Assembly (NCBI RefSeq): GCF_000372725.1
Contig: NW_005201381.1
Location: 121,953-185,952 of the forward strand
DNA from: Emiliania huxleyi CCMP1516
Taxonomy: Eukaryota
Reading direction: 5' to 3'
DNA length: 64,000 nucleotides
This document shows, piece after piece, positions 1-56,698 of the stretch. The notes below the pieces were generated by a model. That model saw only the letters and a program-made list of their open reading frames with translations, did no database searches and was not told the origin of the DNA. The first letter of the stretch is position 1; each line of letters opens with the position of its first letter. Position numbers and translations under genes: made by a program.

Positions 1-1561
1 CTCGTCGCGCGAGCTGCAGCGGCTCGAGTCCATCTCGCGCTCGCCCATCTACACCGCCTTCACCGAGGCGCTCAACGGCGCGCCGACGATCGCCGCGATG
101 CGCGTCGCGCCGCGGTTCGAGGAGGCGTCGGTTCGCCGCTTCGACGCAAACACGCGCGCCGCCTGCCACCATGCACGCGCCCTGCAATGAATGGATAACT
201 CACGGCGTGCTCATGGACTCATCAAGGCGCGCCGCCTTCCTCATGTGCCTTCCTCATGTACGCGGAACGATCTCGGAACCTTCTCGGAACCTTCCCCTAG
301 GCGCGCTGCCTTCATCATGTACGCGGCCAATCGGTGGCTGTCGGTGCGGCTCGAGTTCCTGTCCAACCTCCTGCTCGCGCTCACGGCGCTCCTCGCCGTC
401 GCCTCGCACCTCGCAAACGGCGGAGGCGGCAAGGCGTCGGCCGGCCTCGCCGGCCTGGCGCTCTCCTACGCGCCGGGCATGACGGACACGCTCAACAACT
501 TGCTGCGCAACTTCACGTCGCTCGAGACGATGATGGTCGCCGTCGAGCGGCTCTCGCAGTATGCGCAGCTCGAGCCCGAGGAGGCGGCGGCCAGGGCGCC
601 GCCCTCGCCCCCCGCGGCGTGGCCGTCCGAGGGCGCCATCAGCTTCGCGGGCGTGCGGATGGGCTACCGGCCGGGCATGTCCGGGACACGACCACGACAT
701 GTCCGAGACATGTCGCATAGGCGTTCGGATGGGCTACCGGCCGGGACTGCCCGATGTCCTCTCCGACCTCCGCCTCGACATTGCGCCGCGCGAGAAGGTC
801 GGGATCGTCGGCCGCACCGGCGCCGGCAAGTCGTCCATCCTGGTGGCCCTCTTCCGGATGGGCGAGGTGCGCGCAGGCGCCATCCTCCTCGACGGGGTCG
901 ACATCTCGGCGGTGCCGCTGCCGACGCTGCGCTCGCGGCTCGCAATCATCCCTCAGGACCCGGTCCTCTTCACCGGCACGCTGCGCCAGAACCTCGACCC
1001 CTTCTCCGAGGCGAGATATCCCCGAGATCACCCGAGGTCGCCCGAGGTCGCCCGAGGTCGCCCGAGATGGACCGAGGTCGCCCGAGATCGCCCGAGGTCG
1101 CCCGAGGTCGCCCGAGGTCACCCGAGATCGACCCCTTCTCCCAGGCGGCCGACGCGCAGCTGTGGGACGCGCTCGACGCGTGCTCCATCGGTGGCGCGAT
1201 GCGCGAGCACCCCGATGGGCTCGGCAAGCCGATCGACGAGCGCGGCGCCAACCTGTCGATGGGTCAGCGGCAGCTCGTCTGCATGGCGCGGGCGCTGCTC
1301 AAGCGCGCGCGCATTCTCGTCCTCGACGAGGCGACCGCTTCCGTCGACATGGAGACGGACGAGCTGATCCAGCAGACGCTGCGCCGCGAGATGACCGACG
1401 CCACCGTGCTCACCATCGCCCACCGGCTCGACACCATCATGCAGGGCGACCGGGTGGTGGTCATGCACGCGGGGCAGGCGGTCGAGTCGGGCCCGCCGCT
1501 TGAGCTCCGCGACACGCCCGGCTCGCGCTTCGCCGAGCTGTGGAGCGCGCAACAGCAGTGA
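1..1561 (+). CDS. ABC transporter C family (MRP-like), 3' part: end of TMD2 plus NBD2; introns ~154-300, 651-720, 1011-1144
   Basis: Spliced frame reads [42 protein letters not shown], Walker [30 protein letters not shown], signature [17 protein letters not shown], Walker [10 protein letters not shown] and TIAHRL; stop TGA at 1559-1561. Confidence 0.95.
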
Positions 1562-5989: not shown

Positions 5990-7659
5990 GCTCGCGTGCT
6001 GGTGTGGTGCCCTAAAACCGCGTTTTCTTCTGTGACCGAGGAAACTTTTTTGTCGAAAAATCACATCGCAAACCCTGTGACCTCCGGGTAAGTTCGTGAG
6101 AGAGAGAAGCGACATATCATGACATTTGTGTATAATACATGTATACACACTGTGGCCAAAGAAAGAAAGAAAACAGACAAACCAAACGAGGGATAGGGGA
6201 GGAGGACAGGGTCCACACCTGCACGAGCAGGATTTTGGAAGGACGATCAGGGGGACAGGTGGGCTCTCCTGCTCCTGACAAGGGACACGACAGACAGGCT
6301 CGCAGCGCGGTGCACGGTGGAATCCCAACTCCACTGGCGGTCTCATCTCAGTCTAGCGACCTTCCTCCGGCTTCTCACCGGCAGTCTCTCACTACCACGG
6401 GCACACTGACACAGGGGTGGCAGGGGTGGCCAGAAAAAGCGCGCGAATGAGTTGTTTTTCCTACAGAAAGGGCACGACCGCACGACGAGTGTCTCGAGTG
6501 ATTTCGTTTTTCTCGACGTCTTCGCCTGCGGGCCACTGGGCGGCGCGCCGCGCCGCGCGCGGGCCGCGGCCCTCACACACCGTTAATATAAATTGTCCAT
6601 ATGCCGAAAAAAAACCTGTCTGGAGTCTGTACTCTGATGTGTGAGTGTGTGATGTCTGTGCCGTGCGGCGTGCGGCGCCGTGTGTGTTCTGAGCGGTCGA
6701 CATCTGGAGCTAGGCGCGTGTGCGTCTTCCCCCCTCATCCGTGGGTCGCAGACTCTGGGTCAAAAAACTGGGACGAGCGTTTGTGCAAAACTTGTTTGTG
6801 CAAAAAGCCGAAAACTACCAAAAAGAGCTACATACACTGGAATAAAAAAAAAACGCTGTCACGGCCAGCTTGGCACTATCTACTCAAAAAAAGTGACGTA
6901 GAGCACCCACTTTTAAAGCGTTCCGCGCACACACAAGGACCGCATGCGTGCGCCGCCAGCTTCCCAGGGCCATCGCGCGAAAAACGACGGAGGAGATGCA
7001 TCCTAGCTGTCGCCACCGAAGGCGACTCGACGCCGCTGAGACCGGAGATCAAGCTCTGACAAGTCGCACGTCGCTCCTTTGACACCGACGTGACTCACCC
7101 GTGCAGAGAACATCAGTACACGGACTTGACGCGCTCGGTACGACGCCTGCGACCCGTCTTGGGTCAGGTGGCACGACGCTCATCGCGCCTACCAGCGCTG
7201 CCGTGCAGGTTGCCACGACGAGGTCGAGCACGCTTCTATACGCTCGCCCAGCCTTCCTTTCCATCCCATTAGGCAGCCCGGGAACGGTGGCGGTCAGAGG
7301 CAAAGCCTGCGAGGGGTGGTGGAACCACATGTCACGGCCACCGCCGGCTCGACGCGACGATAGCCTCCGGAGGCTGACTTTGAGGCACCATCATCGGACG
7401 ATGTCGACGAGTTGGGTCGCTCTCGCGGTATCCAGGTAGCCCCCCATACTAGTAGCACCAGCCATGGCCTCAGGGAGGCGGGCGAGGGCGCTGGGAGCAA
7501 CACGGACAAAAAACATCTCAAAAGTGGTCAAAAGGTCATTTTATGATACCACCCGTAAAGCCGTATTTGCAACTAGTCCTGGAGGCTTCTCTATAACAAT
7601 TCTGTAGAGACTAGAGTCGGTTGTGCGCACACGAACTCCAACAGCGCAGCACTCTCTGC

Positions 7660-9729
7660 TCACTCAACCGACTGTGGCAAGAGCCCCTCGTTCGAGTAGA
7701 GGGCAGCGATGCCGCGGTGCAGCTCGAGGGCGTGCCGCTGCGCGTGCGACGCCGCGGCGGGCGTGTCCCACACACCGGGGTAGCGCGCGAACAGCGCGCG
7801 CGGCGCCCGCGCCAGCAGCCCGCCGATGGACGCGCCAACCTCGTGCAAGCTCTCTGCGCAGTTGGGGTGGAGCGGGCCGAGGAGAGCGCGCTGGGTGCGC
7901 CAGAGCTCGAGGGCGCTCTCGAGGAGCGCCAGCAGGCTCGGCGCACTCGGCGGCGCGCCGCTCTCCTCGAGCTGCAGCCGGATCGCCGCGAGCAGCTCGC
8001 GCCGGACGCGGGCGACGGCGAGGTGCCGCTCGCCGAGCTCTCGCACCTGTTCACGCAAGAGGTGTGAAGAGACGCTGTTCACAGGTGCCGCTCGCCGAGC
8101 TCTCTCACCTTCGGAAAAAAACGAAAGCAAACTCACGCGGACAACAGAACGGCGTGAAGACGCTGTCCGCTCGCCCGGCCCTCGCGCCAGCTCGCGCAGC
8201 ACCGCCGCGCACGCCGCCTCGTCGACGCCGCCTCCCGGCCCCGCACGCGCCGCGCGTCGCACCGCCTCCCTCGCGCCCGCCTCGAGAGTGAGGGTGAGTT
8301 CGTCCGCCTCGGCCGCGCCCGCCTCGGACGCACTTCGCGGCGGCGCGTCCCACTCGCTGTGCCGCTCCGCCTCGCTCGTAAAGTCGAAGTGGTCGAGGTG
8401 TCTGCTGCACGCCGCGGGGGTGAGCTCGGCAGGCTGCGCGTAGCAGATGAGCACCTCCTGCCCCTGCGGTGTGAATGCGCGGTGTGAATGCACAACGCGT
8501 CGGAGTGTGCCTGCGGGCACTGGCCAACGGCACTCGCAGCACCGCGTGGACGGCGGAAGAAAGGGAGCGACTGGCGCGTGACGCAAGGGAACAGTGCGAG
8601 TGTCTTCGCGGTGCTGAACACAGAGATGTGGATTCGGCGTCTGCCGGGGGGGGGGGGGGGGGAGCCTGAGCGATGTGCCGCGTGGCTCGCACGACGCTCG
8701 TCAGCGTGCCGCCTGAAGACGAAAGGGTCCAATCATATGCTACGCCCCGAGTGTGGGTTCGGGGGGTCTTCGCAGCAGTGAGGTAGGGGATACCGTCAAG
8801 AGTGGTTTCTTTTTCCAGGGGGGTGAGCGTGAACGGTCGTATGTGTCTCTGCGTCGCTCCCTCCGTGCCTTAGTCAACCTCCGCCCTGATGTCGCGTGTG
8901 TCTAGTCGCTGGCCAGACACTCTGTTCCGCCTCTCTGTCTACTCCAGCTTGCCGGCACGCAGCGCGGCCTTGTCGGCGTTGGCGCGTCGCGAGGGCGCGT
9001 GGTTGAAGATGGACTGGTGCAGGAACAGGCCCGAGGCGAACGCGTTCCAGCGGCACACGAGGCAAAGCCGCAGCAGCTCGGCCCGCCTGCCCTCGTCGCC
9101 GAGCCCGCCTACAAAAAGAAAGCGTGTCGCCGCACGCGACGACCGCCGTGAAGTCCTGCCCTCCTGCCCTCGCCGCCGAGGTCGGCCGCGCCCGGCTCCT
9201 GCAGCAGCGCGTCGACGCACGCGCAGTGCTCCTCCTCCAGGCGCGGCCGGTCAAAGGCAGACACGCTGCGCAGCTCCATCGGGTGCAGCCGCGAGAGCGC
9301 GGCCAGGGCGACCCGTCGCTCCACCGCGCTGCGCCGGAGCACGGACTGCAACAGCGAGAGCGGCTCGTGTTCGGCTGACGGCCAGGGCACAAAGGGCTGC
9401 TCCCATATCAGGACTTGGCCGGGCGAGATGTCGCGAGCCGCCACGAAGCCGCGGCCCGACCCCGGGATCTGCCGCACCGCAATCGGGCCGACCACACGCG
9501 GAGGGTGCTCGGGCCACACACAGAGCGCGTCGGCGGTGTTGACGTCGGCGGCAGCGGTCAGCCGGGGCGGGACAACGACCTGATCGCCATTGGCATCCGC
9601 GAATGGCGCGAGAGCGTTGCGCTTGCTACTGGCGGCGGTGGCGGGCACAGCTGGTGCGGGTGCGCATCCGGCTGTGCCGACCGGAGACGTGGGAGGAGGG
9701 TCCCCAAAGATGGACCAGACGTCATCCAT
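7660..9729 (-). CDS. SMYD-like SET-domain protein, multi-exon (introns include 9109-9191 and 8047-8187)
   Basis: IPGSGRGFVAARDISPGQVLIWEQPF, RWNAFASGLFLHQSIFNH, GQEVLICY, RHLDHFDF, and a C-terminal LGPLHPNCAESLHEVG TPR-like segment. Confidence 0.8.
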
Positions 9730-11192: not shown

Positions 11193-14100
11193 TAAGAAAG
11201 AAAACAGACAACGCAAGGGAGGGATGGGAGGACGGCACGCCGCCACCACACAGGGATTTTAAGGAGAGGAGTGTGGTGCTAGCCGTCGCCCACCCTTGGG
11301 CGTCCGCCTCTTCCTGTCTCTCTTCGCAGTCCCTCGCCGACTCTCGCTGCAACCTTCATGCCACCCCGCGGTCGTCCCACTCTCGTCGTTCTCTCCCTTG
11401 TCGCTTCCTCCTCTGTCGCGTCGCTCTCCTGCTCTGCCTCATCCTGCGACGGTGCCGCCGCCTGCCGATCCCTTGCTCTCGCTGCTCGGCGCAGCTCTGC
11501 CCTCCTCGCGGCATATTTTGGCCCCTCGAGTTTATCGAGCTCTCCTCGCGCAAGGACGACTCGACTCTCTTCTGACGCCCACTGCGATCATTTGCCGCCA
11601 AGTCATATCGTTGCTCAGGTCCACTCTCTCTTCGAACACTTGTGCCTTCACGGATGATGCCGGCGCTGGGGTCCCCGTCGGGTGCATCGTGACAGCTGAC
11701 GGCGGGATTTCCACTGGCTCGTCCTCCTCGGAGTCGTCTTCCCCGGCTTCCTTCCGCTCGGCTCTACGTTCATTACGTTCATCGTGGCTCACCCTCCATG
11801 CCGTGAACAGGCGCTTTATCCACCCTATATTCTTCTCTCGTTCCTCTGCCCGTGCCTTGGTCTTGTCGTTGTTTCGCACCCATGTCTGCATGGCAGTCGA
11901 GGCTGCCTTCCCCACTACCTGTAGTTCACTCGTCACCTCTCCTGCGAGCTCCCCTCTGCCCTCTCTTTCTCTCGGGTATGGAGTCCGTGAGTGCGGGCAG
12001 CGTGCAGGCAATCACGGGCGCTATTTTGTCGTACTCCTCTTCGGCGAGCGCTCCAAATCTAGACCCTTTCGCCTTTAAGGAGGCTGCCCTCGCTCGTCTC
12101 AGGAATGTGGCGGTGTCTTTTGAGTCCGGCGCCTCCCGTTCAACTCTTGCTGTCGCCCTCGCCGCGTGTTTGTCAAGCTTCCGCAAGAAGTAACGCGCCT
12201 CTTCCTTATTTCCAGCGCAGCTGCCGCTCAGTATGTGCGCCAACGACGCCTGCGGTGGCTGACTGTCTTCTTGTTTCCAGTCGTCCCAGTCTCTCAGTTC
12301 TCCGAGTCTCCTCCTCGCCTCGCGCGCCTCTTTTTGTGGCCTCATCCCTAGCCGCCTTGCACGCTCTGCATCCCCCAGAACGCACTTCTCGTGGCGGGGC
12401 CCCTCATTCCCCGTTTCTTTTCCCCTTCTAGAATGCGCCTGTGGTGTGCCCCATGTGGCACCCCGACCTGTTGTCTCACCCTGGCTCCCAAGATCGTTTT
12501 GGTCGTCACATTGTGACCCCCGACGTCGTCGAATGTCGCCCGCCTGTCCTTTCCCCGTTCTCGTCTGGTAATCGCATCTTATTATCCCATCGATGCTTCA
12601 GGCTGGCTACAGCCACTTCGCTCCACAACCGTCCCGCCACCCCTGCCGTGTGCGATCCCGGCCTCACCGTTTTTCGATATTGCTCGCACACCCACTCGTG
12701 CGCGCTCTTACACATGTGTCCGTACGTCCGTCGGTCCACTATCTGGGACTATCTCCCTCTTCTGACTTCTCCAAATGACGTGTGAGTGTTAGAGTTGTTT
12801 GGTATTGCTAAAAATCTCTTCTCTGTGTTCCCTGCCGCCTCCCTTCGCGCCGTGTACATGCATGGCCGCGTCCGCACCGCGTCCCGCACCACTTTCGAGG
12901 CGTCCTCTGTGTCGTTATCCCCGAGCCTGTCTGAAAGAAAGAAAGAAAACACGCAACCCAAGGGAGGGATGGGAGGACGGCACGCCGCCACCACACAGGG
13001 ATTTTAAGGAGAGGTGTGTGATGCGCTAGCCGTCGCCCACCCTAGGGAGTCTGCCTCTTCCTATCTCTCTTCGCAGTCTCTCGCCGCTTCTCGCTGCAAC
13101 CTTCATGCCACCTCGCGGTCGTCCCACTCTCGTCGTTCTCTCCCTTGTCATTTCCTCCTCTGTCGCGTCGTTCTCTTCTGCCTCGTCCTGCGACGCGAGT
13201 CTGCTAAAGAAAGAAAGAAAACACACAACCCAAGGGAGGGATGGGAGAACGGCACGCCGCCACCACACAGGGATTTTAAGGAGAGGAGGGTGTGATGCGC
13301 TAGCCGTCGCCCACCCTGGGGAGTCTGCCTCCTCGTATCTCTTTTCGCAGTCTCTCGCCGCTTCTCGCTGCAACCTTCATGCCACCTCGCGGCTGTCCCA
13401 CTCTCGTCGTTCTCTCCCTTGTCACTTCCCCCTCTGTCGCGTCGTTCTCTTCTGCCTCGTCCTGCGACGCCGCCGCCTGCCGGTCCCTTGTTCTCGCGGC
13501 TTCTTTCGCCTCTCGGCGCAACTCCGTCCTCCTTGCGGCGTATCCTGGCCCCTCGAGTCTATCGAGCTCCCCTCGCGCAAGGACCACATTTCTGACTCCC
13601 ACTCCGATCATTTGCCTCCAAGTCATGTTGTTGCTCAGGTCCACTCTCTCTTCGAACACTCGTGCCTCTACGGATGATGCCGGCGCTGGGGTCCCCTTCG
13701 GATGCATCGTGACATCTGACAACTGAATTTCCACTGGTTCGTCCTCCTCTGAGTCATCTTCCCCGTCCTCCTTCCGCTCGGCTCTTCGCTCGGTACGTTC
13801 GGTGTGGCTCACCCTCCGCGAGTCTGCTAAAGAAAGAAAACACACAACCCAAGGGAGGGATGGGAGAACGGCACGCCGCCACCACACAGGGATTTTAAGG
13901 AGAGGAGTGTGGTGCGCTAGCCGTCGCCCACCCTGGGGAGTCTGCCTCTTCGTATCTCTTTTCGCAGTCTCTCGCCGCTTCTCGCTGCAACCTTCATGCC
14001 ACCTCGCGGCCGTCCCACTCTCGTCGGTCTCTCCCTTGTCACTTCCTCCTCTGTCGCGTCGTTCTCTTCTGCCTCGTCCTGCGACGCCGCCGCCTGCCGA

Positions 14101-14277
14101 TCCCTTGTTCTCGCGGCTTCTTTCGCCTTGCGCAACTCCGTCCTCCTCGCGGCGTATCCTGGCCCCTCGAGTCTATCAAGCTCCCCTCGCGCAAGGACCA
14201 CATTTCTGACTCCCACTCCGATCATTTGCCTACACGTCATGTTGTTGCTCAGGTCCACTCTCTCTTCGAACACTTCC
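11193..14277 (-). mobile_element. Head-to-tail array of four 5'-truncated copies of non-LTR retrotransposon family A (~11193-12925, 12932-13193, 13206-13816, 13829-14276)
   Basis: Each copy begins on + with (aaag)n-aaacac/agac-caagggagggatgggag...cacacagggattttaaggagagg and extends a different length; shared decayed ORF (VFEERVDLSNDMTWRQMIAVGVR; ASLAHILSGSC zinc-finger-like remnant). Confidence 0.85.
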
Positions 14278-16548: not shown

Positions 16549-17060
16549 GGAGGGAGAGAAAGAAAGAGAGGGAGAGAGGGAGAGCAACGGCATTTAATGC
16601 TCCGGACCGNNNNNNNNNNNNNNNNNNNNNNNNNNNNNNNNNNNNNNNNNNNNNNNNNNNNNNNNNNNNNNNNNNNNNNNNNNNNNNNNNNNNNNNNNNN
16701 NNNNNNNNNAAGGGCGAGGGTAGCAGCAGCGGACGTTGCGGTAATAGCAGCACGACCCAGCAGGCACAACGTGGACGACGGCTTAGTGCTATCCTCGTCG
16801 GGAGGACGACCCCGGCGTCGTATCCAAGTGGAAGTGCTCGTCCTTGCCCACATCAGAGTAAAAGGCACTCTGCGACGAGAACAACGCCGCAGTTGTTTTC
16901 CCCAAGGTGGGCTGGAGAAGGGGTTCGGCACGCTGGAAGACGCACCGCCGGCGGGCAACGGCCTCGCGCCCGGATCCAAGGGCATCCGATGCAGGCTGAT
17001 GTTGTCGAGCGTAGCCTTGTCCGACTCGTCGAGCATCTCGTCCGCGATCGCGAGATCCAG

Positions 17061-18154: not shown

Positions 18155-19204
18155 GTGCTCGAGAGCTCCTTGGCGAACGGCGAAGCGGCCAGCCGCAGCA
18201 GCAGCTCCAGCGGCGAGGGCGGCAGCTCGCGAGACTCGAAGCGGGCGAGGAGCCTAGGGGTAGGGTAGGGCTAGGGTTCACGACTCGAAGCGGGCGGGAG
18301 GCCACGCCGCCAAGACACGCCACCAAGACATCCGCCAGGGCGCACCCGTCAGCTCAGAGCATCGCGCGGACGGTTAAGGGCGACGAAATGCACACGGCTG
18401 GATACCGCCGAGGGCGTGTGCTCTCGCGTGCTAGTCGGGATACAACGATCTGGGTACACCGGATCTAACACCGCATCTAGGGCGCGGAGCCGCTGGGAGG
18501 TGGCGGCGTCCTTTGCGAGCGAGAACCAGTGCCCGTCGTTGTCGTCGCTCATGTGCGGCACGGTGAGGGTGACGCCGCTCGCGAGCGAGACGTCCACGCA
18601 GAACTCCTTGGACGTCGACCCGATCTCGGTCAGCCACACCCGACTCACCTGGGCAGCCTCTGGCGAGCCAGAGAGCCACACCGCCTCGACGTCCATGGGC
18701 AGCCTCCCGCCACCGCCCCGGGTGCCCGCCGCGCGAACGGCGGGCTCTGGCGTTTGCGACCTGATGACCGCCGGCGCGGCCGATGGCGCGGCTGGCGGCG
18801 ACGTGAGCGGCGAGGCAGCCTCGGCGAGCTGCCGCTTGGAGCGGGCCGCCGTGGAAGGCGACCGGGCCGGGGTGAGAGGATAAATCTCCTCGCTAATTTC
18901 GCTGTAGTGGTTGGCCTCGTCCTGGTCGGACGGCATCGCGCGGCTCTCTCGCGTCCCTGCTGCCTGAGCGACCGCTGCGCGAGGAGAGAAGGACGCAACC
19001 TCAGCGCGGGCGTCCTTCCGTTCACGCCCGGGACCGACGGTCCCCGTGGTTACCGGTAAACACGAATGCACCTCCTACTCGATAGCATGGAGGACGGGCC
19101 CACACGCACACACACACACACTGTGTGTGTGTGTGTCAGTGTGTGTGTGTGTGTGTGTGAGAGAGAGATTTTTGTGTTTTGTGTTTTGTGTGTGTGTTGT
19201 GTGT

Positions 19205-19992: not shown

Positions 19993-20096
19993 AGTTACCC
20001 CCCCCCCCCCAGTGAACACTCCAGTGAGGGAGGGCGAGACGATCGAGGGGTCCCGTACCACGCGGAATCGACCCTATCCAGTGCTCAAGTGCTCAA
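19993..20096 (+). mobile_element. Dispersed repeat family C (SINE or LINE 3' end, with AGTGCTCA tandem tail); further copies at ~21656-21698 +, 32086-32125 -, 34073-34132 -, 34890-35097 -, 45722-45831 +, 51287-51479 -, 52398-52510 +
   Basis: cccccc-agtgaacactccagtgagggagggcgagacgatcgaggggtcccgtacca.gcggaatcgaccctatccagtgctcaagtgctcaa recurs 8 times, with a shared end and variable start. Confidence 0.85.
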
Positions 20097-20136
20097 TGTT
20101 GAGTTTGGCGGCTTTCTAAAAGAATTCTTAAAATAC

Positions 20137-21655
20137 ACCACACAGGGAATCAGGGATTTTAAGGAGAGGGGTGTGGTGCGCTAGCCGTCGCCCACCCTAA
20201 CCCTTGGGCGTCTGCTTCTTCTTCCTATCTCTCTTCGCAGTCCCTCGCCGTACGCCGATTCTCGCTGCAACCTTCATGCCACCTCGCGGTCGTCCCACTC
20301 TCGTCGTTCTCTCTCTTGTCGCTTCCTCCTCTGTCGCGTCGCTCTCCTCGGCCTCGTCCTGCGACGCCGCCGCCGTCTGCCGCCGATCCCTCGCTCTCGC
20401 TGCTTTTCCCGCCTTTCGTCGCAGCTCTGCCCGCCTGGCGGCATATTTTGGCCCCTCGAGTTTATCGAGCTCTCCTCGAGCAAGGATGAGTCTTCTGACG
20501 CCCACTGCTATCATTTGCCGCCAAGTCATATCGTTGCTCAGGTCCACTCTCTCTTCGAACACTTGTGCCTCCACGGATGATGTTGGCGCTGGTGTCCCCT
20601 TCGGGTGTATCGTGACAGCTGACGACGGGATTACCACAGGTGTTTCGTCCTCCTCGGGTTCGTCTTCCCCGGCTTCCTCCCGTTCGGCTCTACGTTCATT
20701 ACGTTCATCGTGGCTCACCCTCCATGCCGTGAACAGGCTCTTTATCCACCCTATATTCTTCTCTCGCTCCTCTGCCCGTGCCTTGGTCTTGTCGTTGTTT
20801 CGCACCCATGTCTGTATGGCGATCGAGGCTGCCTTCCCCACTACCTGTAGTTCACTCGTCACCTCTCCTGCGAGCTCCCCTCTCTTTCTCTCGGGTATGG
20901 AGTCCGTGAGTGCGGGCAGCGTGCAGGCAATCACGGGCGCTATTTTGTCGTACTCCTCTTCGGCGAGCGCTCCAAATCTAGACCCCATTGCCTTTAAGGA
21001 GGCTGCCCTCGCGCGTCTCAGTACTCAGAAATATAGCTGTGTCCGTTTTGAGTCAGGCGGCGCCCGTTCAACTCTTGCTGCCGCCCTCGCCGCGTGTTTG
21101 TCAAGCTTCTCTCTTGCTGCCGCCCTCGAGTTCTTGCTGGCGCGAACTCAACTCTTGCTGCCGCCCTCGCCGCGGTTCAACTCTTGCTGCCGCCCTCGCC
21201 GGAACGTGCATGGCCGAGTTCGCACCGCGTTCCGCACCTCTTTCGAGGCGTCCTCCGTGTCGTTATTTCCGAGGTATGCTGTCGCCACCGCGTCGGCGTA
21301 TGCGTTGCAGGCTATTCCCACGTGTGCTGGCACCCACATGAAGACCACCGCCTCTAGCTTCGATCTATAGTAAGCAATCCCTCTAGGTAGGAGAACCGCC
21401 TCTCTCCCAGTCCCTCAGGCCTTCTGGCATCCCTTCGCGGTGCGCATTCTCAATCTGCTGCAGCGCGGGTTTGCAGTCGCATAGTACTAAGCACCGTCGC
21501 GATTGCGCATCGCTCGCGCTCGCCATTTTGCGTAGGTAGGTATGCGAGTTGCGCGTACTTCTCCGCGTCTATCGGCTCCCACGTGCTCGGCAGCTTTCCT
21601 CCCCACATGCCCGCCCCAAAGGCTGTCCGTCTCTCCTCTTCCCCACACTGCTGTC
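20137..21655 (-). mobile_element. LINE family A copy with RNase H C-terminal remnant
   Basis: VFMWVPAHVGIACNAYADAVATAYL (~21270-21348) is the RNase H WVP.H.GI..NE.AD motif; downstream sequence is homologous to the 11193-12925 copy. Confidence 0.85.
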
Positions 21656-25499: not shown

Positions 25500-26821
25500 A
25501 ACTCGTGTGGCATCTGGGGCTCCTCTGCCACCCACGTCGTGGCCTTGGAGAGCGCCTCCTTCGTCAGCACCTGCGAGGGGAAGAGGGGCCGTGGCAGCGA
25601 GAGAGAAGAGGGGCGGTGCCACTAAGAGCCGGGGAGACAAGGGGGCGGGCAGAGGGGGGCAGAGCCCGCACATTGTACACGGGAGACGGCACCCAGCCGC
25701 GCAGCTTGCACTCGCACGAGTAGTACACCCGCGAGCTCGCCTGATGCATTGATTCCACCATCACAACGATGTGAGAAGCACAGGAGTCGGTGGAGACGCT
25801 AGCTGGCCAACTAGGCTGGCCTAGTTCATCAGCTCCTTGCAACCTCACGGGGCCTCCTCCTTGCACTCGCACGCGTAGCAGAGACGCGAGCTCGCCCGCC
25901 CCGCCCCCGGCTCGACGTACCTGCACCGCGAGACACAGCCGAGGTACAGCCGAGCCATAGCCAAGCCATAGCCGAGCCATAGCCGAGATGAGCACTGCTG
26001 GGCGCGAGCTGGCCGTTGCCACGCGCCGCGACACTACGCCCGCCCTCTCGGCTGTGCCTCGGCAGCGTCTCGCGCGTCGGTATCCGACAGAGACCCTCGG
26101 CGATCTCGCGGCTGCACATCTCGGCTGCGTCTCGGCTGCATCTCGGCTGCGTCGCGCGCCAGTATCCGACGGAGTCGTCGATGTCGGAGCGGCGAGAGTA
26201 GTCGAGGTGGAAGGTCATGCACCGCTTCTCCGGGTCGTACTCGTGCTCCATGAAGTACCTCATCTTCATGTGCAGCACCGCGATGTCGTACGTCGTCTTG
26301 ATCCTCTGCAGCCCTCCCTCCTGCAGCGAGCACGACGCGGCTCTCGCAAGGGCGAGGAGGAGGCGGAGGAGGGGGGGGAGCGGGAGCGGCGGGGTTCGGC
26401 CGGCCGCGCGCGCGTGCGACGCGCCTGCTCGCGGTTGTACTCCACATTCCGCGTCACCCCGTCCACCATCTTGTCGTAGTGCGCCAAGTCCATGATGCGG
26501 CTGCGCGCAGCAGGGCGGGCGAGGGCGCTCAGGCGAGCGCTCGCGCGGGCGGTGCGCGAGGCCGGCGGTGGCCCGGGCGCATGCGCACTCCATCACGACG
26601 TTCGGCGGCGCAGCGATATCCTGCACCATGAGCAGCCGCCGCGCGCCAACAATTCCCGTCTCCATCGCCTGCATCACCGGCTTCCCCGAGCTGAGCCGCT
26701 CCTCGTCGGAGCGCGAGAGCAGCACCGAGGGCGGGCCAATCTCGTAGCGCGTGAGCTTCCCGTTGTGATAGTGCGGCTCGTTCTCCGCCGCCGCGGCGAC
26801 GGCTAAAGAGAGGGTGAGCAT
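25500..26821 (-). CDS. Secreted or organellar START/SRPBCC-like protein, multi-exon; 3' end uncertain
   Basis: Spliced MLTLSLAVAAAAENEPHYHNGKL...LMVQDIAAPPNVVM..IMDLAHYDKMV...MTFHLDYSRRSDIDDSVGYWYVEP...SRVYYSCECKLRGWVPSPVYNVLTKEALSKATTWV. Confidence 0.7.
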
Positions 26822-28009: not shown

Positions 28010-28520
28010 AGCGCCAGCATCATCCGTGGAGGCACAAGTGTTCGAGGAGAGAGTGGACCTGAGCAACGATATGACTTGGCGGCAAATGATCGCAGTGGGC
28101 GTCAGAAGAGTCGTCCTTGCGCGAGGAGAGCTCGATAGACTCGAGGGACGAGGGTATGTATGCCGCGAGGAGGGCAGAGCTGCGACGAAAGGCGAGAGAA
28201 GCCGCGAGAGCAAGGGAGCGGCAGGCGGCGGCGGCGTCGCAGAACGAGGCAGAGGAGAGCGACGCGACAGAGGAAGAAGCGACAACGGAGAGAACGTGAA
28301 CGACGAGAGTGGGACGACCGCGAGGTGGCATGAAGGTTGCAGCGAGAATCGGCGAGAGACTGCGAAGAGAGATAGGAAGAGGCGGACGCCCAAGGGTGGG
28401 CGACGGCTAGCGCATCACACCCCTCTCCTTAAAATCCCTCTGTGTGGTGGCGGCGTGGGCCGCGTCCTCCCATCCCTCTTGGGTGGGTTGTCTGTTTTCT
28501 TTCGTTTATCGAAAAAAAAA
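28010..28520 (+). mobile_element. LINE family A 3' fragment
   Basis: Same VFEERVDLSNDMTWRQM segment and ctccttaaaatccct...cccatccct...tgttttcttt 3' end. Confidence 0.85.
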
Positions 28521-34006: not shown

Positions 34007-35927
34007 GGATAGTTTCGGCCGAGGAGCCGGCCCACATGAATCGCGATCCGCTGAGAGTATCCCACACTGAACTGGACCCCTCGATTGTCTCGCCCTCCCT
34101 CGCTGGTGTGCTCATTGGGGGGGGTCATAACAATCTTGTACTACCGCCACACTAAATCTAAAAGCCGTATATAGTGAGCCACTCACTCGGGCGTCTCGGC
34201 TCCTGACGTTGATCGATCTCCCTAGCCTATCGATCCCCCGCTCGATCCTCGGATCGCTCGCTCGTCGAAATCGATCGACTGAAGTCATCAAGGTGGCCCA
34301 GCCTTTTCTTTTTTCGAAAACGCGCACGCGCGCGCGCACGCCCGTCGCCCGGCAAAACTGTCAGGTCCGCCGCGACGCGTCGCCGCAATGGCGGGCGGCG
34401 ACGTGGTGGAAGCCATGCAGCTCGCCCTCAAGCCATTTCATATGCAGCACCTTGCCGACGACTGGGCGGCGCAAGCCGGCGAAAAAAAGCTCAGCTGTCT
34501 GTAAGGCCGTTCAGAGCTGCCACTTGCCAGCACCCCCCAGCACCAGAGCTCTGCTGGGGGGGGGGGTCGGCCATGATGAGAAGGGGGGGTACCGAGCAGT
34601 GTGCGGCCGCTCTTGGCGCGCGTCAGACCCCCTACAGTGGGTTGCAGGCATTAAGAAAACGTACCATTAAGAAACCACGCCGAGCGATTGCCGCAAAAAT
34701 CTAAGAAACCCCGGCGCGCCGCAGCGCGCAGGCGCGGCCCCGAGAAAAGGGCCAGACACTCAGGCCAGACACGAGTGTGAACGCTGAACGGGAGCCCCAG
34801 CTCAAAATTTCTCTTCGCCTGCGTCATCCAGAGAGCCGACTCGACGGCAGACTCTGGCATCGCCCTCCGGACCGCAGCTTACCTCTTTCTTGAGCAACTT
34901 GAGCACTGGATAGGGTCGATTCCGGATGGTACGGGACCCCTCGATCGTCTCGCCCTCCCTCACTGGAGTGTTCAGGGGGGGGGGGGGTGTCATAACAAAC
35001 ACGGTACAGGATCGAGGTGCACGCTGCCGAAGCAGTGTCGTCCCCCCTCTCCTCGACGGTGGTGGCGGTGTGACCGATCGAGCTACAAAGACGGTTACTG
35101 GACCGACACCAGTTCGACGTCGTCGAACAACGTTCGACCATGGCACTGTTCACAGCGCGCGCGGACGGCGGTTCTGCGAGTCCCGCTCAGCAGGACTTTT
35201 GTAAAGCATGCTTGTGGCAAGTTATAGACGCTAGTATCGACCTCAGAGACCCAAACACGAATGAATATTTAAGGCTCAAAGTATGGTCATACAAACAGGT
35301 CAAACAATGAGGCGACCGCTAGACGGCGGTCTCCGCCGGCCCCAAGGCTGCCCAGCCCCAGTACCACACCGGCCACGTACACCGTGGCGCTGGAGCCGGT
35401 CAGTGAGGCACTAGACGGGCTACGGAACCATGCGCGCGCCGGCCGGACAGGCTGCGCGCAGGGGCTGCGCCGCCTCGATTTCGCACCTCCGCTCCGCGGC
35501 CGACTGAGGGGCCAGCTCGCCCGGCACAAGCCCAGCCATCGCCCAGCGCCCCGTATCGACGGGGGGCACGCAAAAAAACCGCACCTACGACTCAGGGGAG
35601 TCCGTGAGGGCGTCGGTGTCGGCCGCGGGCGGGCTGCGAGGAGGGCGCGGGGGGAGCATGGGAGATGCACCACCGCTCGACGAAGACGCGCCAGACGAAG
35701 CCCTGCTTGCGGAGGATGGTCGATCCTCACCTACTAGTGTCGGGCGTGTGCGAAAAAGAGCGCAAATCGGAGCTCAACTCGCGCGCGGCTGGGATAGGGG
35801 TGCCACACCCCTCCGAAGGCGCCTCGGGCAAAATGTGGGGAAAATGGTCATGTTGAAAAATGGCCATGTTTTCCGACCCTTCACGGCGACTTTAGTCACA
35901 GGGCGGGACAGCTCAGGAAAACAACAG

Positions 35928-42040: not shown

Positions 42041-42704
42041 NNNNNNNNNNNNNNNNNNNNNNNNNNNNNNNNNNNNNNNNNNNNNNNNNNNNNNNNNNNN
42101 NNNNNNNNNNNNNNNNNNNNNNNNNNNNNNNNNNNNNNNNNNNNNNNNNNNNNNNNNNNNNNNNNNNNNNNNNNNNNNNNNNNNNNNNNNNNNNNNNNNN
42201 NNNNNNNNNNNNNNNNNNNNNNNNNNNNNNNNNNNNNNNNNNNNNNNNNNNNNNNNNNNNNNNNNNNNNNNNNNNNNNNNNNNNNNNNNNNNNNNNNNNN
42301 NNNNNNNNNNNNNNNNNNNNNNNNNNNNNNNNNNNNNNNNNNNNNNNNNNNNNNNNNNNNNNNNNNNNNNNNNNNNNNNNNNNNNNNNNNNNNNNNNNNN
42401 NNNNNNNNNNNNNNNNNNNNNNNNNNNNNNNNNNNNNNNNNNNNNNNNNNNNNNNNNNNNNNNNNNNNNNNNNNNNNNNNNNNNNNNNNNNNNNNNNNNN
42501 NNNNNNNNNNNNNNNNNNNNNNNNNNNNNNNNNNNNNNNNNNNNNNNNNNNNNNNNNNNNNNNNNNNNNNNNNNNNNNNNNNNNNNNNNNNNNNNNNNNN
42601 NNNNNNNNNNNNNNNNNNNNNNNNNNNNNNNNNNNNNNNNNNNNNNNNNNNNNNNNNNNNNNNNNNNNNNNNNNNNNNNNNNNNNNNNNNNNNNNNNNNN
42701 NNNN
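42041..42704. other. Assembly gap
   Basis: Run of N. Confidence 1.
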
Positions 42705-45700: not shown

Positions 45701-46025
45701 TCGAGACCTGTGTTAGTGCCAGTGTTTGTTATGACCCCCCCCAGTGAACACTCCAGTGAGGGAGGGCGAGACGATCGAGGGGTCCCGTACCATGCGGAAT
45801 CGACCCTATCCAGTGCTCACAAGTGCTCAAGTGCCAGTGGCAGTATGCGCGCCAGTCCCGTGCGGCCCAGTTGTGCGAGGGAGTTTTGTTGTCTAGAACT
45901 TACCCAAACGAGCGATTTCTTTTCCCCGTTCTTTTGTTTTGTTTCGTCGCTGGCTGGTGCGGGCTGCGCTTTGTTTGTTTGCCACACACACGCACGCTTT
46001 TGGGGTCACCCCCCCCCCCACCCCG

Positions 46026-46225
46026 AAAGAAAGAAAGAAAGAAAAACAGACAACCCAAGGGAGGGATGGGAGGACGGCACGCGCCGCCACCACACAGGGA
46101 TTTTAAGGAGAGGAGCCGGCGCCCACCCTAACCCTTGGTCGTCTGCCTCTTTCTATCTCCCTTCGCAGTCCCTCGCCGATTCCTCGCTGCAACCTTCTTT
46201 TCACCTTTTGTCGTCGCTCTCCTCT
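46026..46225 (-). mobile_element. LINE family A short 3' fragment, adjacent to (GA)n at 46235-46282
   Basis: (aaag)n aaaacagacaacccaagggagggatgggaggacggcacg...cacacagggattttaaggagagg. Confidence 0.8.
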
Positions 46226-50425: not shown

Positions 50426-52094
50426 AATTTGGCCTGTGCGCGTTATTCTCGAATATCTTTGAGAATATAGAAGGTCCCGCGCACTTTCATATTCGAGAAT
50501 ATTCTCGAGAACATAGATGCCCCGGCCGGCTTTTCCCTCAAGAATATACGAGCTTTCCGCAGCCCTTGCTGAGGGAGGGTGTAGAGGATGTAGAGTGTAG
50601 AGCGCTGTAGAGCTGTAGAGATGTAGAGCGCTCTGGAGCGCTGTAGAGCTGTAGAGCTCTAAATCCGGCGCGTGACGATGTGAGTCCGATGTAGAGCGAT
50701 GTAGAGCGCGATTTTGTTGTAGAGTTTGTTGTAGAGGCTCTACAGCCAAACCGCCGGGAAGGCAGTTAACTCAAAGAGGTCGATCCGCGCTAATGGGGTG
50801 TCTCCGAGCTTACTGGAGCTCTGATGGACGGCCCTGACTATCCCTGACACACAGAGAGTCACTCTGACGGCACACAACACCCTATAACTGCGTCATGACC
50901 AGCCTGCCATGCGTCGCCGGTGCCGCATTCGTCGCAGTGCTTCTTTAGCAGGCGGTGGACTGTCGGCTGCGAGGACGGTCGCATTTGCGCGAGGCGAGGC
51001 GAGCATTGCTGCGCATTGCATGCGCCATGACTCGCGCCAGCGCGTGCGGGAGCTCCTGGCTGAGCGTTGAGTCCAGGCGAGTTGCGCTGGCCACGATCGT
51101 AACGCCGAGCCGAGCTGACGCGCCGAGGCGCCGGTCAGTCGCAGCCGTGAGGCATGTCACTGCAGCAGAGGCACCTGCCACCCATTGGGCGGGCAGACAG
51201 AAGGCCAGGGCAGCACTGGCAAGCGCAACGCGCCTCATGTCGGAGAGCGACCGTGCCTCGTTCGCCGCTTATGATGTAGAGTTTGTTGAGCACTTGAGCA
51301 CTGGATAGGGTCGATTCCGCATGGTACGGGACCCCTCGATCGTCTCGCCCACCCTCACTGGTGTGTTCATTGGGGGGGGTCATAACAAACACGGTACAGG
51401 ATCGAGGTGCACGCTGCCGAAGCAGTGTCGTCCCCCCTCTCCCCGACGGCGATGGCGGTGTGACCGATCGAGCTACAAGAGGAGCTTGTTCAGCAGGATC
51501 CGGGATAGTCAGATGCACTACTAGAGTTTGTTGTTGTATGATAGTAGTGTGGCAGTCTGGTCGGAGGGCGCCCGGGTCGCCCCGGAGCGGCCCCGCGCGG
51601 GGAGGTGGGTGGAGGGCGGGCACCACGCCATCGGGCAGGCCACGCGGGGACGCAGCCGGGGCCAGCGCGCGGCGCTAGAGGAGAGATTTCACGTTGTAGA
51701 GCGCCTCTACATCGCTCTACATCGGACTCACATCGTCCCGCGCCGGATGTAGAGCTCTACAGCTCTACAGCGCTCCAGAGCGCTCTCTCTACATCTCTAC
51801 ATCTCTATACCGCACAGTAGGTTTCAGGTCGAGAGAGAGAGATATTTTAGAAACCAGGTCGATGCCGACTGAAATCTTTAAGTTTTGGAGGTTCTGGAGC
51901 GGGTTTGGGAGCGACTTTTGGCACTTTGGAGCGATTTTTGGCCTCCGAGCTCCGTCGACCTGTCGGTCGAAATATTCTCCGTTTGTTGTAATATTCTCAT
52001 TATTCGAGAATATTCTCGAGAATATAGAGGGTCGGGGAGAATATATGCAAAAGATAGATAGTACTGGGCGAGAATAACGCGCACAGGCTAAATT
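50426..52094. mobile_element. Possible composite or nested inverted-repeat element
   Basis: Outer IR 25/26 identical (50426-50451 vs 52069-52094) with gagaatattctc-rich subtermini; inner ~80-bp GTAGAG-rich IR (50625-50706 vs 51705-51786). Confidence 0.55.
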
Positions 52095-53000
52095 GGGTAT
52101 GCCAGCCCGTGCTGCGGAGCAGCCTCGCCATTCGGAGCCGCATTCCGCCGGCACCGTCCTTGAGAGATTTTTAGAAGACAAAAAATCTGCACTCACAGTG
52201 ACTTGGGCTCGGCAGCTTGTTCCTTGAGTGCGCCCCGCCGTGGCGAGACGCACTCGACGAGGACGGCTTCGCCGGCGGTACCGAGTCGCACAGGCCGGCA
52301 ACAGTTGCAGCGAGGTGTGTGTGTGTGTACGAGGCGCCGCTTCGACGAAGCGAGGTTGGTAGGCGAGAGTCTGTCTGCGGGGCTTACGAGTCGCGCTGTT
52401 TGTTATGACCCCCCCCAATGAACACACCAGTGAGGGAGGGCGAGACGATCGAGGGGTCCCGTACCAAGGTACCATGCGGAATCGACCCTATCAAGTGCTC
52501 AAGTGCTCAAGAGTCTGCGGTAGGTAGGTAGGTAGGTAGGTAGAAAGGTGAAGAACAGCCAGGCTCGGACTGGACACCAACGCGGTATGGGTGGACGCTA
52601 GACAGATGATGACGACACGCACGAGCGACACACAGACACAAACAGGCTCACAAGACACACAGCCAGCGGGCTGCCACACACCCTGAGTAGGCGTACACAT
52701 AACTCAAGGCCACATCCTCCCTGTCGCCCCCCCCTGCACTGCGTTCGAGTCGCGCTGAGTAAAAAAAATTGTGCGTGTCACGGCGTGGAGACACTCGACG
52801 ATCGCGCAGTCCTCGAGTTTACGCCTTGGCCCCATCAATCCTCTCGATACTCCGAGCTTGTTCGCGCGCCCTGCACAGCGCCGCGGCGGCGACCTTTCGC
52901 ACACCCACGCCCCTTCTCCTCCCTCCGCCCGCGGCAGCGTGCCTCGCAGCCACGCACGCCTCCGACCGCCGTCGCCGGTGCCCCACCGCCACAGGCTCTA

Positions 53001-56000
53001 ATGGCCCATGCCCCCCACGGTCAGATGGAGCACGCCCCAACCGGGCGGGATTACGCGCCGCACATTGTGTGGAACGTCGTCACCCGTGCGCGCCGCCTCC
53101 CCCGCATACCCCCCCCCCCCCCACACACACCCACACATAAACTCAGCTCCGCCGCCACTGCCCGCTGCTGCAGATGATCTCGCACGGCCAGATCCGGCGC
53201 GCAGACTTCGCCGCCGGCCGACGCACAGACATAGCGTCGCAGGCGGCGATCCGGGCGGGGCAGCCCCAGGCGATCCAGTGCCAGCCCGGACTTGCCGCTC
53301 CGGGCACCGCCGTGTCGGTATCCGCCCCTAGAAGCGGATACGTGCTTTTGTGATCCGCGTATTCGGCTGTATTCGTACCCCGCATCTTCACGCGTTGCTC
53401 TGAATCCTCTGCACAATGTCGTATTCCCGCCCTAAGGTTGGCGTATCCGATATGTAGGTCTCCGCCCCGCCGAACCCGGGTGCTGCGGTTGACGTGTCGG
53501 TCCCTGCCGGTGGCGCTCAGCAGACGGAAGCGGCGCAGCAGCAGCTGGCACTGCAGCAGCAGCAGCAGGCTTTGCAGCAGCAGCAGTTGGCACTGCAGCA
53601 GCAGCAGCAGGCATCGCAGCTCTCGATGGCCCTCCCGATGGCGATGCAGCAGCAGCAGGCGATGGCGCAGCAGCAGCGCGCCATGGTGCAGCAGCAGGTG
53701 GCGCACCCACCCCGCTACCCCCCACTCGGCCTCCAACCTAGCTTCTTTGCCCGATCCCCGCCACATTGCGCCTCCTTTCCCAACTAAAGGGGGCTGACCC
53801 CCCCCCCCCCCCCCGTTCAGCCCGGCGGCGCCGCCGCCGTCGCTGTCAGCGCCCCCCCTCCGGGTGGCGGCCCTCCGGGTGGGATTCCCGCGTCCGGGCT
53901 ACCCCCAGGGTACGGTCTCGGGCCCGAGGCGCTGGCTGCGGCCAGCGTCGCGGCCAGCGTCGCGGCCAGCGTCGCAGGCGGCGCCCCGGCGGCGTGCGCC
54001 CCTCCGGCCATGGTGCCCGGAGCACGCCCCCCTCGGCGGTGCCTCGGCTACTCCTCGGCGTCACCACGTGTGCGCTCCGGCTGCAGGCGCAACCGGGCCA
54101 GTTGGCGCAGCTGGGCTACGCCGACCCGCGCTTCTACCACGGCATGATGCCGACGCTGCCGGCCATGGCCACAGCGGTGCATTACCCCCCCGGCTACCCG
54201 GGGGCGTGCTTGGGCGCCTACCCCGCCCCGGGCCACCCCCCCGCGGCGGCGCAGTGGCCGCCGCCGCCTGCTGGTTTCGGATCATTCGCTTTTGCGCCGC
54301 CGTCCGCCAGCAGCGGTGGGATGCCACCCACAAGCGGCGGGATGCCGCCCACAGCGATGCGGCTGGTCGCACCGCCGCCGCCGGCGGCTCCGCCGACAAT
54401 GGCGCCTGCGCCGGCCGTGGGCAGTAGTGCGCCGGGCTCGGCGTTGCCGGCGATTTCGCCGCAGCGGCCGCTGCCGCAGCCGATGCCGGCGCCTGTCCTG
54501 CCGACCGTGCCGACTGTGCCGGCGCCGGCTGTCACGCCGGGGCGACTCCCACCCCTCGAGAACCGCATCGCCGATGCCAGCCCGCCCGCCGCCGAGCAGC
54601 CACCCGCCTCCGTCGCGAGTGCGATCGCGGCCGCAAAAAGCGCGGCCCCAAAAAGCGCGGCCCCAAAAGGCGCGGCCCCGCCCGCGCTCGCGCCGTCGGC
54701 GTCCGCCGAGTCTGAGGGTGTGGACGAGGGGGCGGCGGCGGCGCTTCGCGCATTGGCTGGCGCCGGCGCGTCCTCTGCGCTCGTGGCCGCCTCGCCGGCG
54801 GCGGCCGGCGGCGAGACTTGCGCCTATCCCAACTACCCGCCGCCGCCGCCTTGCGGCAACAGTGGGCTCGCGGCGGACCGGTGGCAGCCATCGGCGGGCG
54901 ACGTGATGTTGCTCGAGCGCGTCTTCGAGATGGAGCCGCTGCCGTGCCGCGCCACCCGCGAGCAGCTGGCGACGCACTTCAGCATCACCTCGCGGCAGGT
55001 GCAGGTCTGGTTCCAAAACAAGCGTCAGCGCGTGCGCGTGCGGGCGGCCCGGGACGGGTTGCTGCCCCCCCCTGGCCAGCCGCTCGAGAAGCGGCCTGCC
55101 GAGCCCAGCGACGCTGTCGGAGGGGGCGGTGGAGGGAGCGGTGGCGGCGGCGAGGCGGCGAGGGGTAGCGGCGGGGGCGAGGCCAAGGGCCAAGGGTTGG
55201 CGGCGAGCGCGGGCGGCGGCGCCCGCAGCGGCGGCGCCACCGGCCGTCCGACGCGAGAGGAATCGGCGAGCGAGTCCGCGCTCGACGGCTTGGTCGCACT
55301 CTTTGACCCCGCGGCGCGCGTGGCGCGGACGACCAGCGGTGGCCGCGAGATCTACCATCTCAAGACGGCCGCGTCAGGCGAGGGGGGCAGCGAGCAGGGC
55401 GCCTCGAGCGGGTCGGACTTGGTCAAGGCGGTGCAGGCGCGGCTCAAGCCCGCCGCCTTCGACCAGGGGCGGCTGCAGCCTAGGGCTGGCCACCACGGCC
55501 CCGCTCTGACGCCAAAGCTGAAGCTGCAACCGCGCGGCAGGGGCGCGGGCAAGCTGGGCGAGGGGGGCGCGTCCTCCCTGAGCCACGCCGAGGTGATGCG
55601 CCGGCTCGCTGCGATGGGCTGCTGTGAGAAGGACCCGCTCTGCACCCGCGGCTTCAAGCACGGGGGCAAGGGCGGGCCCTGTTCGCGCAAGCGCGTGCGC
55701 GCGGGCGCCGATGCACCCGCCACCGCGGCCGGCGGTGGGGCGGAGGCGGATGGCGGCGGCGACGGCGACGGCGACGGCGAGCCGCGGCTGCTCCTCGAGG
55801 CATGGGCCGAGGTGTTGCGCAAGTGCGAGGAGTCGGCCGACTGGATGCCGAGTCGCGTCCTGATCCAGCGCTGCCTCAACGCGGACGGCGTGAGCGCCGA
55901 GGCGGCCAAGCGCATCAAGCAGCTCCTCGAGCGGTGCGTTGCTGAACCCGACAACGAGCGTTCCCGTTCCTCGCTGCACAGGGTGCTCCTCGCCACGGGT

Positions 56001-56698
56001 CGGCCGATCGTCGCGCGGGCACCCGCCGGTTGGGGGTCGTCTGACAGCGAGAGCGACGAAGGCGGCGGCGGCGGTGGCGGCGGCGGCGGCGGCGGCGGGG
56101 TGGGGACGTACGAGGCAGCGAGGCTCGCGCCAGGGGACATTGGCCAGTGCGCGAAGGCGGGCTGGCGACGTTCACACGGAGTGCGCATGGAGGCGGTGGT
56201 TCTCACGGTCCGCGCGCACATGCGCTGTAGGACCCGCTGTGCACGCGCGGCTACAAGCATTGCGGCAAGGGGGGCCGCTGCTCGCACGCGCCCCGGCAGG
56301 CAACCTTCCTGCCGCGCCTCAACCGCAGGTGGCGGGGCAGCGAGATCGTGCCCGCCGCCGGCTCGGCTGCCGGCGCGGGGGACGGCGAGCCGGGTTTGCC
56401 CAAGAGGCAGGCCGTGGCGGCCGGCACGGACGTGGCAGGCCCCCCGACAAGCGCGAGTGGCGCCAGCGGGGCTGAGATCACAGAGGCGCCAGCCTCCGGC
56501 GAGAGCGCCGACGGCGCCTCCGAGCCCGGGGGCGGCTCGGGTGGGTCTAGCTCTGAGGGCTCCGGCGAGGAGGGGAGCTCGGATGAGTCGAGCTCAGAAT
56601 CGGAGGACGACGACGATCGCGAGCTGGTGGAAGAGTCGCCGATGGAGGAGAGCCCCCCCCGCCGCCCCCCCACCTCAGACAGCTCCCCGAGCCCTTGA
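53001..56698 (+). CDS. Homeodomain transcription factor with poly-Q/Pro-rich N-terminus and two C-x4-C-x5-H-x6-C motifs; multi-exon, start uncertain
   Basis: LLERVFEMEPLPCRATREQLATHFSITSRQVQVWFQNKRQRVR (~54907-55040); CEKDPLCTRGFKHGGKGGPC and spliced CAKDPLCTRGYKHCGKGGRC. Confidence 0.85.

Follow-up and report, generated by a model that had tools for sequence, protein, structure and literature searches.

Our analysis shows that a 39-nucleotide (nt) filler, CTGTGAACAGCGTCTCTTCACACCTCTTGCTGTGAACAG, found between two copies of a host stretch in unrelated genes of Emiliania huxleyi, represents a real family of intron-forming repeats. The family acts like an introner that co-opts its donor and carries its acceptor: at the tested sites, the upstream host copy gives the 5′ splice site (GT or GC) and the filler gives the 3′ AG. 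As to its origin, we see about an even chance that this E. huxleyi repeat, which lies between 26- to 39-nt host copies and is removed by splicing together with the upstream one, has spread as a noncoding introner through templated synthesis that is primed by microhomology where the strands carry staggered nicks. The origin of new spliceosomal introns is a long-standing question, many introner families being without a known mechanism, and E. huxleyi is an ecologically important alga. The sequence analyzed (here, the window) is a 64,000-nt stretch of the E. huxleyi CCMP1516 genome (contig NW_005201381.1, positions 121,953 to 185,952), to which all coordinates refer.

A 26-mer of the filler has four exact matches in the window, a number reached by none of 100 shuffles. 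One filler lies on the minus strand (8047 to 8084), and three lie in tandem in a zeaxanthin epoxidase (ZEP)-like gene. The initial annotation had reported a shared filler in two unrelated genes with a one-indel difference between them, and both statements hold: the minus-strand copy is 38 nt long, with a single base deleted relative to the 39-nt full form of the ZEP copies. Since the full 39 nt are present at this first site in a wild allele (L001) and in DNA run X5, the deletion in the window is allele specific. Direct repeats had also been noted at the filler ends; they are present, but their length is corrected here to 10 nt (CTGTGAACAG). These terminal 10-mers are nearly self-complementary (8/10), so that both strands start with CTGT. 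The GT...AG stretch inside the filler is exactly 37 nt, and the GC content of the filler is 51%.

The three tandem fillers are on the plus strand behind the first coding exon of the ZEP-like gene (62207 to 63260), which matches two E. huxleyi CCMP1516 gene models at 100% identity and whose product has homologues named zeaxanthin epoxidase. Positions 63259 to 63496 form a perfect 68-nt tandem repeat of 3.5 units, composed of four 34-nt host copies (starting at 63259, 63327, 63395, and 63463) and three 39-nt fillers (63290 to 63328, 63358 to 63396, and 63426 to 63464); the last AG of the third filler is the 3′ splice site. Removal of a 204-nt GT-AG intron (63261 to 63464) restores the conserved ZEP protein, as supported by tblastn, the homologues, and a poly(A) contig. 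The duplicated peptide exists as a single copy in 28 of 28 printed homologues, and the tblastn alignment resumes at 63464. A poly(A) contig (X13) that extends from 63292 into the sequence beyond 63496 has one host copy and no filler. A depth-2 DNA contig in run X10, from a relative about 88% identical, lacks the insert with the same net 204-nt gap as X13 and is the only empty site seen at the DNA level. RNA run X11 is interrupted at the 34-nt repeat and contains filler-junction contigs as well; the spliced share is therefore not readable from it. The initial annotation described this locus as a single unit with a 32-nt copy. The duplication was correctly recognized, but there are three fillers, and the host duplication is 34 nt counting its AG (32 nt without it).

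At the first site, on the minus strand, the filler is flanked by an intronic upstream host copy of the young round (8083 to 8110, beginning AG|GT) and a downstream copy (8021 to 8048), which is the exon start retained in the mRNA. The two are identical at 27 of 28 bases, which bears out the flanking exon copies described before. An oligo-dT RNA contig (X16; depth of 17.8, with 89 letters on its shorter side) skips 141 nt in the range searched (7400 to 9600), and its joint (8045-8187) reads as a GC...AG intron from 8187 to 8047. The 3′ end of this intron is at the filler AG, the acceptor role that had been proposed for it, and its 5′ end is in an older, decayed exon copy (8167 to 8187) whose GC is the 5′ splice site used. 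This exon copy and a decayed filler (8133 to 8166) make up an older round, and the 141-nt GC-AG intron contains both rounds. Aligned with the young unit, the older round (8187 to 8109) scores 36, against a maximum of 34 in 2000 shuffles (p = 0.0005). The decayed filler part alone scores 26 (p = 0.004), a value reached by 10 of 2175 window tiles, four of which are far higher, as expected of the real fillers. Thus, the proposal that the site was hit twice is backed by the RNA intron start at 8187 and the alignment of the older unit, the filler remnant alone being the weaker part of it.

Run X12 contains a 120-nt contig on 8083 to 8199 with one differing letter and three left over. By its coordinates, it fits a direct 8109-8046 join, produced either by splicing at the inner GT or by an allele without the young insertion. 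In the minus-strand frame at 7663 to 8700, the 141-nt intron is in frame and stop free via the one-base deletion, and its retention would still give a protein; retention of the 142-nt intron of the L001 allele would shift the frame. The host gene looked SET-like by eye, an assignment rejected after Pfam returned 0 families for four exon pieces and the long frame.

A search of metagenomes by an exact 25-mer of the filler returned 12 loci, all 12 containing it. L012 (the same as L006), L001 (the first-site allele), L002, the three window units, and L013 were set aside before counting, and ZEP was counted once, through L008. Together with the window, this gives 12 distinct sites, a small set biased by the exact 25-mer. 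The search for further copies, suggested by the initial annotation, reveals a dispersed family and not just two copies. A host duplication flanks 11 of the 12 sites, with own-flank scores of 32 to 68 compared with at most 26 in 128 mismatched pairs; the remaining site, L004, scores 20, which is within the null, and looks decayed. The repeat unit is 62 to 76 nt long and the target span 26 to 39 nt. At L003 and at L010, two separate hits lie within about 50 nt of exon. The closely similar sequence is found in introns of unrelated host genes, which include ZEP, a RAD16-like helicase, WD40, and Kelch genes.

Public DNA runs point to a larger family. Among the matches listed, X1 has at least 55 loose ends before the filler and at least 66 behind it, and X10 has at least 66 and 49, respectively. 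Agreement among the flanks is 0.43 to 0.50 in both runs, indicating that they are unrelated; contigs of this kind number in the dozens. The filler depth in X1, about 1000 times that of the flanks, was unusable as a copy number, and contig and loose-end counts were used in its place. Two scans of viral contigs gave 0 filler matches, and prokaryote genomes yielded no real copy (0 in the first scan); one 20-mer match in a bacterial coding context, without a duplication, was taken as chance. No Pfam family was found for pieces of L005, L007, L010, and L011.

The filler is in sense orientation at all five loci whose gene strand was fixed independently by RNA or homology (the first site, ZEP, L003, L004, and L009), as the initial annotation had it for its two genes. 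At L005, L007, L010, and L011 the strand comes from open frames only, and none was assigned for L006; no antisense copy was found among the 12 distinct sites. The base after the filler AG is G at 9 of 12 sites, compared with 583 of 2405 CAG in the window (24%). The host reading frame is restored by splicing according to the RNA joint, the RNA read-through, and single-copy proteins. The conserved WD40 protein at L009 has a single copy, and so does a transcript-derived version that is 98% identical; on this protein evidence, exact removal would need a GA donor (AG|GA), unless that strain lacks the insert. Exact removal at L007 likewise requires GA, and GA-AG introns may thus exist in E. huxleyi. 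L003b, L006, and L011 have no GT, GC, or GA donor for exact removal, and at two of these three a GC located three bases upstream would drop one codon.

The junctions differ in character. The right junction is exact and shares between G and AGGTG with the target. Its left counterpart is ragged: at four sites (ZEP, L005, L010b, and the first site) the start of the filler coincides with AGCTG or CCT of the target, and L003b, L006, L007, L010a, and L011 have 1 to 7 extra or changed letters that resemble donor flank (CAG, CAGG, and CAC). Head-to-tail dimers of the 39-nt filler occur as joints in one contig each of X1 and X10. A long duplication of variable length with microhomology at its borders would be the expected trace of templated synthesis at two staggered nicks, and the variability of the target span (26 to 39 nt) argues against a cut of fixed stagger. 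In non-LTR retrotransposons and in SINEs whose target duplications are long (CRE, R4, and R9), the distance from nick to nick sets the length of the target duplication, according to the part of PMC3636483 consulted. Unlike these, the element described here is 39 nt long, without a tail and without a single fixed target site.

We therefore propose the following order of events, reconstructed from the products. (i) Both strands of a gene would be nicked about 30 bp apart. (ii) A free 3′ end would pair over 1 to 5 nt with the end of an existing copy; the template may be an RNA copy, which we prefer and which a borrowed reverse transcriptase would read, or alternatively a DNA copy. (iii) Some 37 to 45 nt would be copied. 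(iv) The new end would rejoin the other nick via AG/AGG pairing, and fill-in would duplicate the stretch between the nicks. Exonic insertions would survive only where removal preserves the frame, a requirement that would account for the sense orientation and for the G that follows the AG. Later, the unit so duplicated could amplify in tandem (three times in ZEP) or be hit again (the first site, L003, and L010). The initial notion of a mobile splice-acceptor cassette is supported as to the dispersed family, the duplications, and the acceptor role, whereas mobility itself is deduced from the product. The filler has no poly(A) or simple-repeat tail, which counts against templated synthesis, and no candidate enzyme, a transposase included, was found in the 40 open reading frames scanned of 80 selected from the window. 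Neither a parent or partner element nor a free RNA turned up in the sequences analyzed. The duplicated stretch at the first site has 6-nt inverted ends. A target hairpin was considered and rejected, as the duplicated stretches fold no better than shuffles (z of -0.07 at the first site and +1.02 at ZEP).

Typical SINEs have a 3′ poly(A) or simple-repeat tail and a tRNA-, 5S-, or 7SL-derived head. The filler shares with SINEs and non-LTR elements a duplication of variable length with a ragged 5′ junction and shows neither tail nor head, by its sequence and by an Rfam search of 7900 to 8300, in which three matches were all far below the gathering score.

Foremost among the alternatives, and in our view unlikely, is a 37-bp nonautonomous DNA transposon bounded by TG...CA, joined at both ends by an integrase or transposase that would attack the two strands at loosely spaced points, some three helical turns from each other. 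The filler termini read TGT...ACA, and the nearly self-complementary terminal 10-mers, although direct repeats, may suit such an element. At most sites, a target G coincides with the base that follows CA, and at about 7 of 12 a target C coincides with the one preceding TG; a target bounded by G...C is suited to an integrase. Most catalogued introners are classed as DNA transposons, in the part of PMC12130899 consulted. On the other hand, the duplications quoted for DNA transposon introners in the portions of the literature at hand are 2 to 8 nt and fixed per family, while those found here vary from 26 to 39 nt and are thus also unlike the short, fixed-length duplications of MITEs and other terminal-inverted-repeat transposons. 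The left junctions are ragged, the sense strand of the filler folds no better than shuffles (z of -0.42; -2.21 for the antisense strand), and the scanned reading frames include no transposase.

Ranking behind the transposon, and doubtful as well, is an origin without dedicated mobility, in which end-joining repair of staggered breaks makes tandem duplications patched from abundant repeats, and patches that can be spliced survive and become templates. The microhomology at the junctions and the existence of several unrelated fillers with the same anatomy are in keeping with this, and intron gain through a repair filler that has direct repeats on its sides has been described (PMC3296678, in the part consulted). 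However, the filler boundaries are nearly constant at the 12 sites (full length, 37 to 39 nt), whereas random capture should yield variable fragments and longer stretches of donor flank.

A third alternative, partial reverse splicing, appears improbable. The 3′ end of an excised intron would join an mRNA at an AG|G-like site, a reverse transcriptase would copy the exon and the last 39 nt of the intron, and the cDNA would recombine with a microhomology join about 30 nt downstream. The right end, exact at AG and followed by G at 9 of 12 sites, the ragged left end, and the sense orientation at every locus tested all fit this scheme. It requires, however, a fixed stop 39 to 41 nt from the 3′ end, and the best motif of the filler that we take to be branch-point-like, TTCAC by the branch-point consensus, sits about 20 nt from that end. 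Reverse splicing also leaves unexplained an ABC-gene intron (1014 to 1143) whose acceptor comes from the downstream copy. Finally, an assembly or adapter artefact, for which the perfect triple ZEP array of the window compared with one unit in metagenome contigs L002 and L008 might speak, is largely refuted by the same sites in independent contigs and runs, by the point variants in the filler and the decayed copies among the sites, and, weakly, by ZEP junction contigs whose depth in X1 and X10 is 2 to 5 times that of the flanks (X1 being a possible source).

Templated synthesis at staggered nicks, the reading we prefer, has to be placed among published introners. Supplementary Table 6 of Gozashti et al. 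(2022; PMC9860276) gives five CCMP1516 families: families 2, 4, and 5 average 37 nt, with 30, 138, and 308 copies (476 in total) and target duplications marked "?" or "N", and families 1 and 3 average 70 nt. Dataset S2 of Gozashti et al. (2025; PMC12130899) contains fam24 (about 70 nt, with a co-opted 5′ site, a carried 3′ site, and "10bp terminal direct repeats") and fam4 (45 copies, a 38-column intron, and 4-nt repeats, classed as LTR). The averages of families 2, 4, and 5 equal the 37-nt GT...AG stretch of the filler, the full units (62 to 76 nt) are like the 70-nt families, and the 4-nt repeat offsets of fam4 match the two ACAG of the filler to within one base. The tabulated families have a GC content of 54 to 57%, 3 to 6 points above that of the filler. 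It is likely that the filler belongs to these families, a comparison made by length and repeat geometry and not by sequence, and probably it is a catalogued introner family with misdrawn boundaries. If nothing but the 37 nt were removed, 9 of 12 sites would have a shifted frame. The long duplication also suggests that E. huxleyi gene models with 37-nt introns are often wrong. The ZEP identifiers (440259 and 444553) and the L004 gene (427067) are absent from the 35 genes listed in the introner tables.

What looks new is the long variable duplication, the ragged microhomology junctions, the repeated hits, and the same anatomy with other fillers. The E. huxleyi tables give the duplication as "?", "N", 2, or 4 nt and family unknown; here it is 26 to 39 nt and included in the intron. 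For other introners, the consulted parts of 10.1101/2022.06.06.494994, PMC11282704, 10.1101/2020.10.14.339549, and the first rows of Dataset S2 give target duplications of 2 to 8 nt. Emiliania is absent from the available main text of 10.1101/2022.06.06.494994 and PMC12130899 and is named in their supplements; nothing relevant was found in the consulted part of PMC2784329. In the literature searched, with introner supplements partly covered, we found no description of long exon duplications in E. huxleyi introns. Family similarity near both intron ends, which serves as an introner filter, does not apply to the introns described here, in which the 5′ 25 to 38 nt are host copy; it is a filter for detection, not a mechanism, and would be passed if the intron were called as the 37-nt GT...AG stretch. 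The host-derived half would hide such elements from end-to-end similarity screens.

Introners of classes 4 to 10 in Symbiodinium and Polarella show the same split, with the 5′ site from the target duplication, a carried 3′ site, and GT, GC, or GA donors, as far as the consulted material extends. They have fixed 4- or 8-nt duplications and terminal inverted repeats, while here the host duplication makes up nearly half of the intron. In intron gain by tandem genomic duplication or break repair, the donor likewise comes from an upstream AG|GT copy and direct repeats surround the insert (PMC3296678, same part), but such tandem-duplication introns hold only host sequence; in our case, one shared foreign filler occurs at many unrelated sites and supplies the acceptor. 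With a long duplication, the host provides half of the intron, the donor being part of it, and this connects the tandem-duplication route with the introner route. For each event, both cut positions and both junctions are preserved, as is its age (in the divergence between the two copies); with probably hundreds of such sites, the mechanism is testable from the existing genome.

The anatomy extends beyond the 39-mer. The two host genes have six introns with RNA support; in four of these, a copy of the next exon stands at the intron start or overlaps it (scores of 24 to 68), and in two it does not (12 and 15). Fillers with 10- to 11-nt units lie between host copies at 249 to 300, 651 to 720, 1014 to 1143, and 63856 to 63932 and in L003 and L005. 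Seven of ten listed filler clusters score at least 25, two entries being one L003 intron and two being one L006 intron; this sample of six introns and ten clusters is small and selected. The 2013 genome paper is reported to describe 10- to 11-nt tandem repeats in introns of E. huxleyi. Three other short-unit fillers come with the same duplication-plus-filler anatomy, which suggests a shared pathway. Tentatively, a genome-wide intron factory unlike the catalogued introners might be at work, in which a single pathway of templated synthesis would duplicate exon stretches of about three helical turns and place between the copies one of several short, near-palindromic fillers (the 39-mer or a member of the GACATGTCC, GGAACCTTC, and CCGAGATCG unit families). 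Small RNAs or circular molecules might serve as templates, in the fashion of telomerase. If true, this would account for a large share of E. huxleyi introns and for GC and GA donors, and hundreds of reference-annotated "37-nt introns" would be miscalled.

Several individual introns are worth recording. A next-exon copy with a GACATGTCC-unit filler is present at 651 to 720 (+), at 63856 to 63932 (+), and in L005 (about 470 to 540); the first two introns share 55 nt at 84%, and the one at 63856 to 63932, in ZEP, is RNA supported. Exon copies with a GGAACCTTC-unit filler occur at 170 to 320 (+), an ABC-gene intron with seemingly two rounds, and in L003 (about 230 to 430), where the unit is tandem amplified as in ZEP. 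In another ABC intron (994 to 1147, +), a 20-nt host duplication surrounds eleven 10-nt CCGAG(A/G)TCG units, and the acceptor appears, from the sequence, to be at the end of the downstream copy, a mirror anatomy. An RNA-supported 65-nt GC-AG intron (9109 to 9173, −) overlaps a 23-nt host duplication that is offset from the splice site, and the mRNA therefore likely gains 12 nt. A 155-nt candidate intron (25741 to 25895, −) has at its start a copy of the next exon, 36 nt long and diverged, and contains an unrelated filler.

Elsewhere in the window, a dispersed repeat family of 0.2 to 1 kb with copies 80 to 96% alike is present at 11194 to 12181, 12938 to 14275, 20136 to 21109, 28010 to 28506, and 46029 to 46206; two copies carry GTGAACAG, with no relation to the filler seen. 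A second dispersed repeat of about 100 to 200 nt occurs in both orientations (19997 to 20096, 34886 to 35088, 45722 to 45831, 51282 to 51478, and 52397 to 52512). Runs of N mark assembly gaps at 16610 to 16709 and 42041 to 42704. Two long plus-strand open frames encode 997 amino acids without a Pfam family (59079 to 62069) and 1015 amino acids with a homeodomain (53742 to 56786), and a 34-nt telomere-like (TAGGG) stretch lies between the copies of a 15-nt direct repeat at 18233 to 18296.
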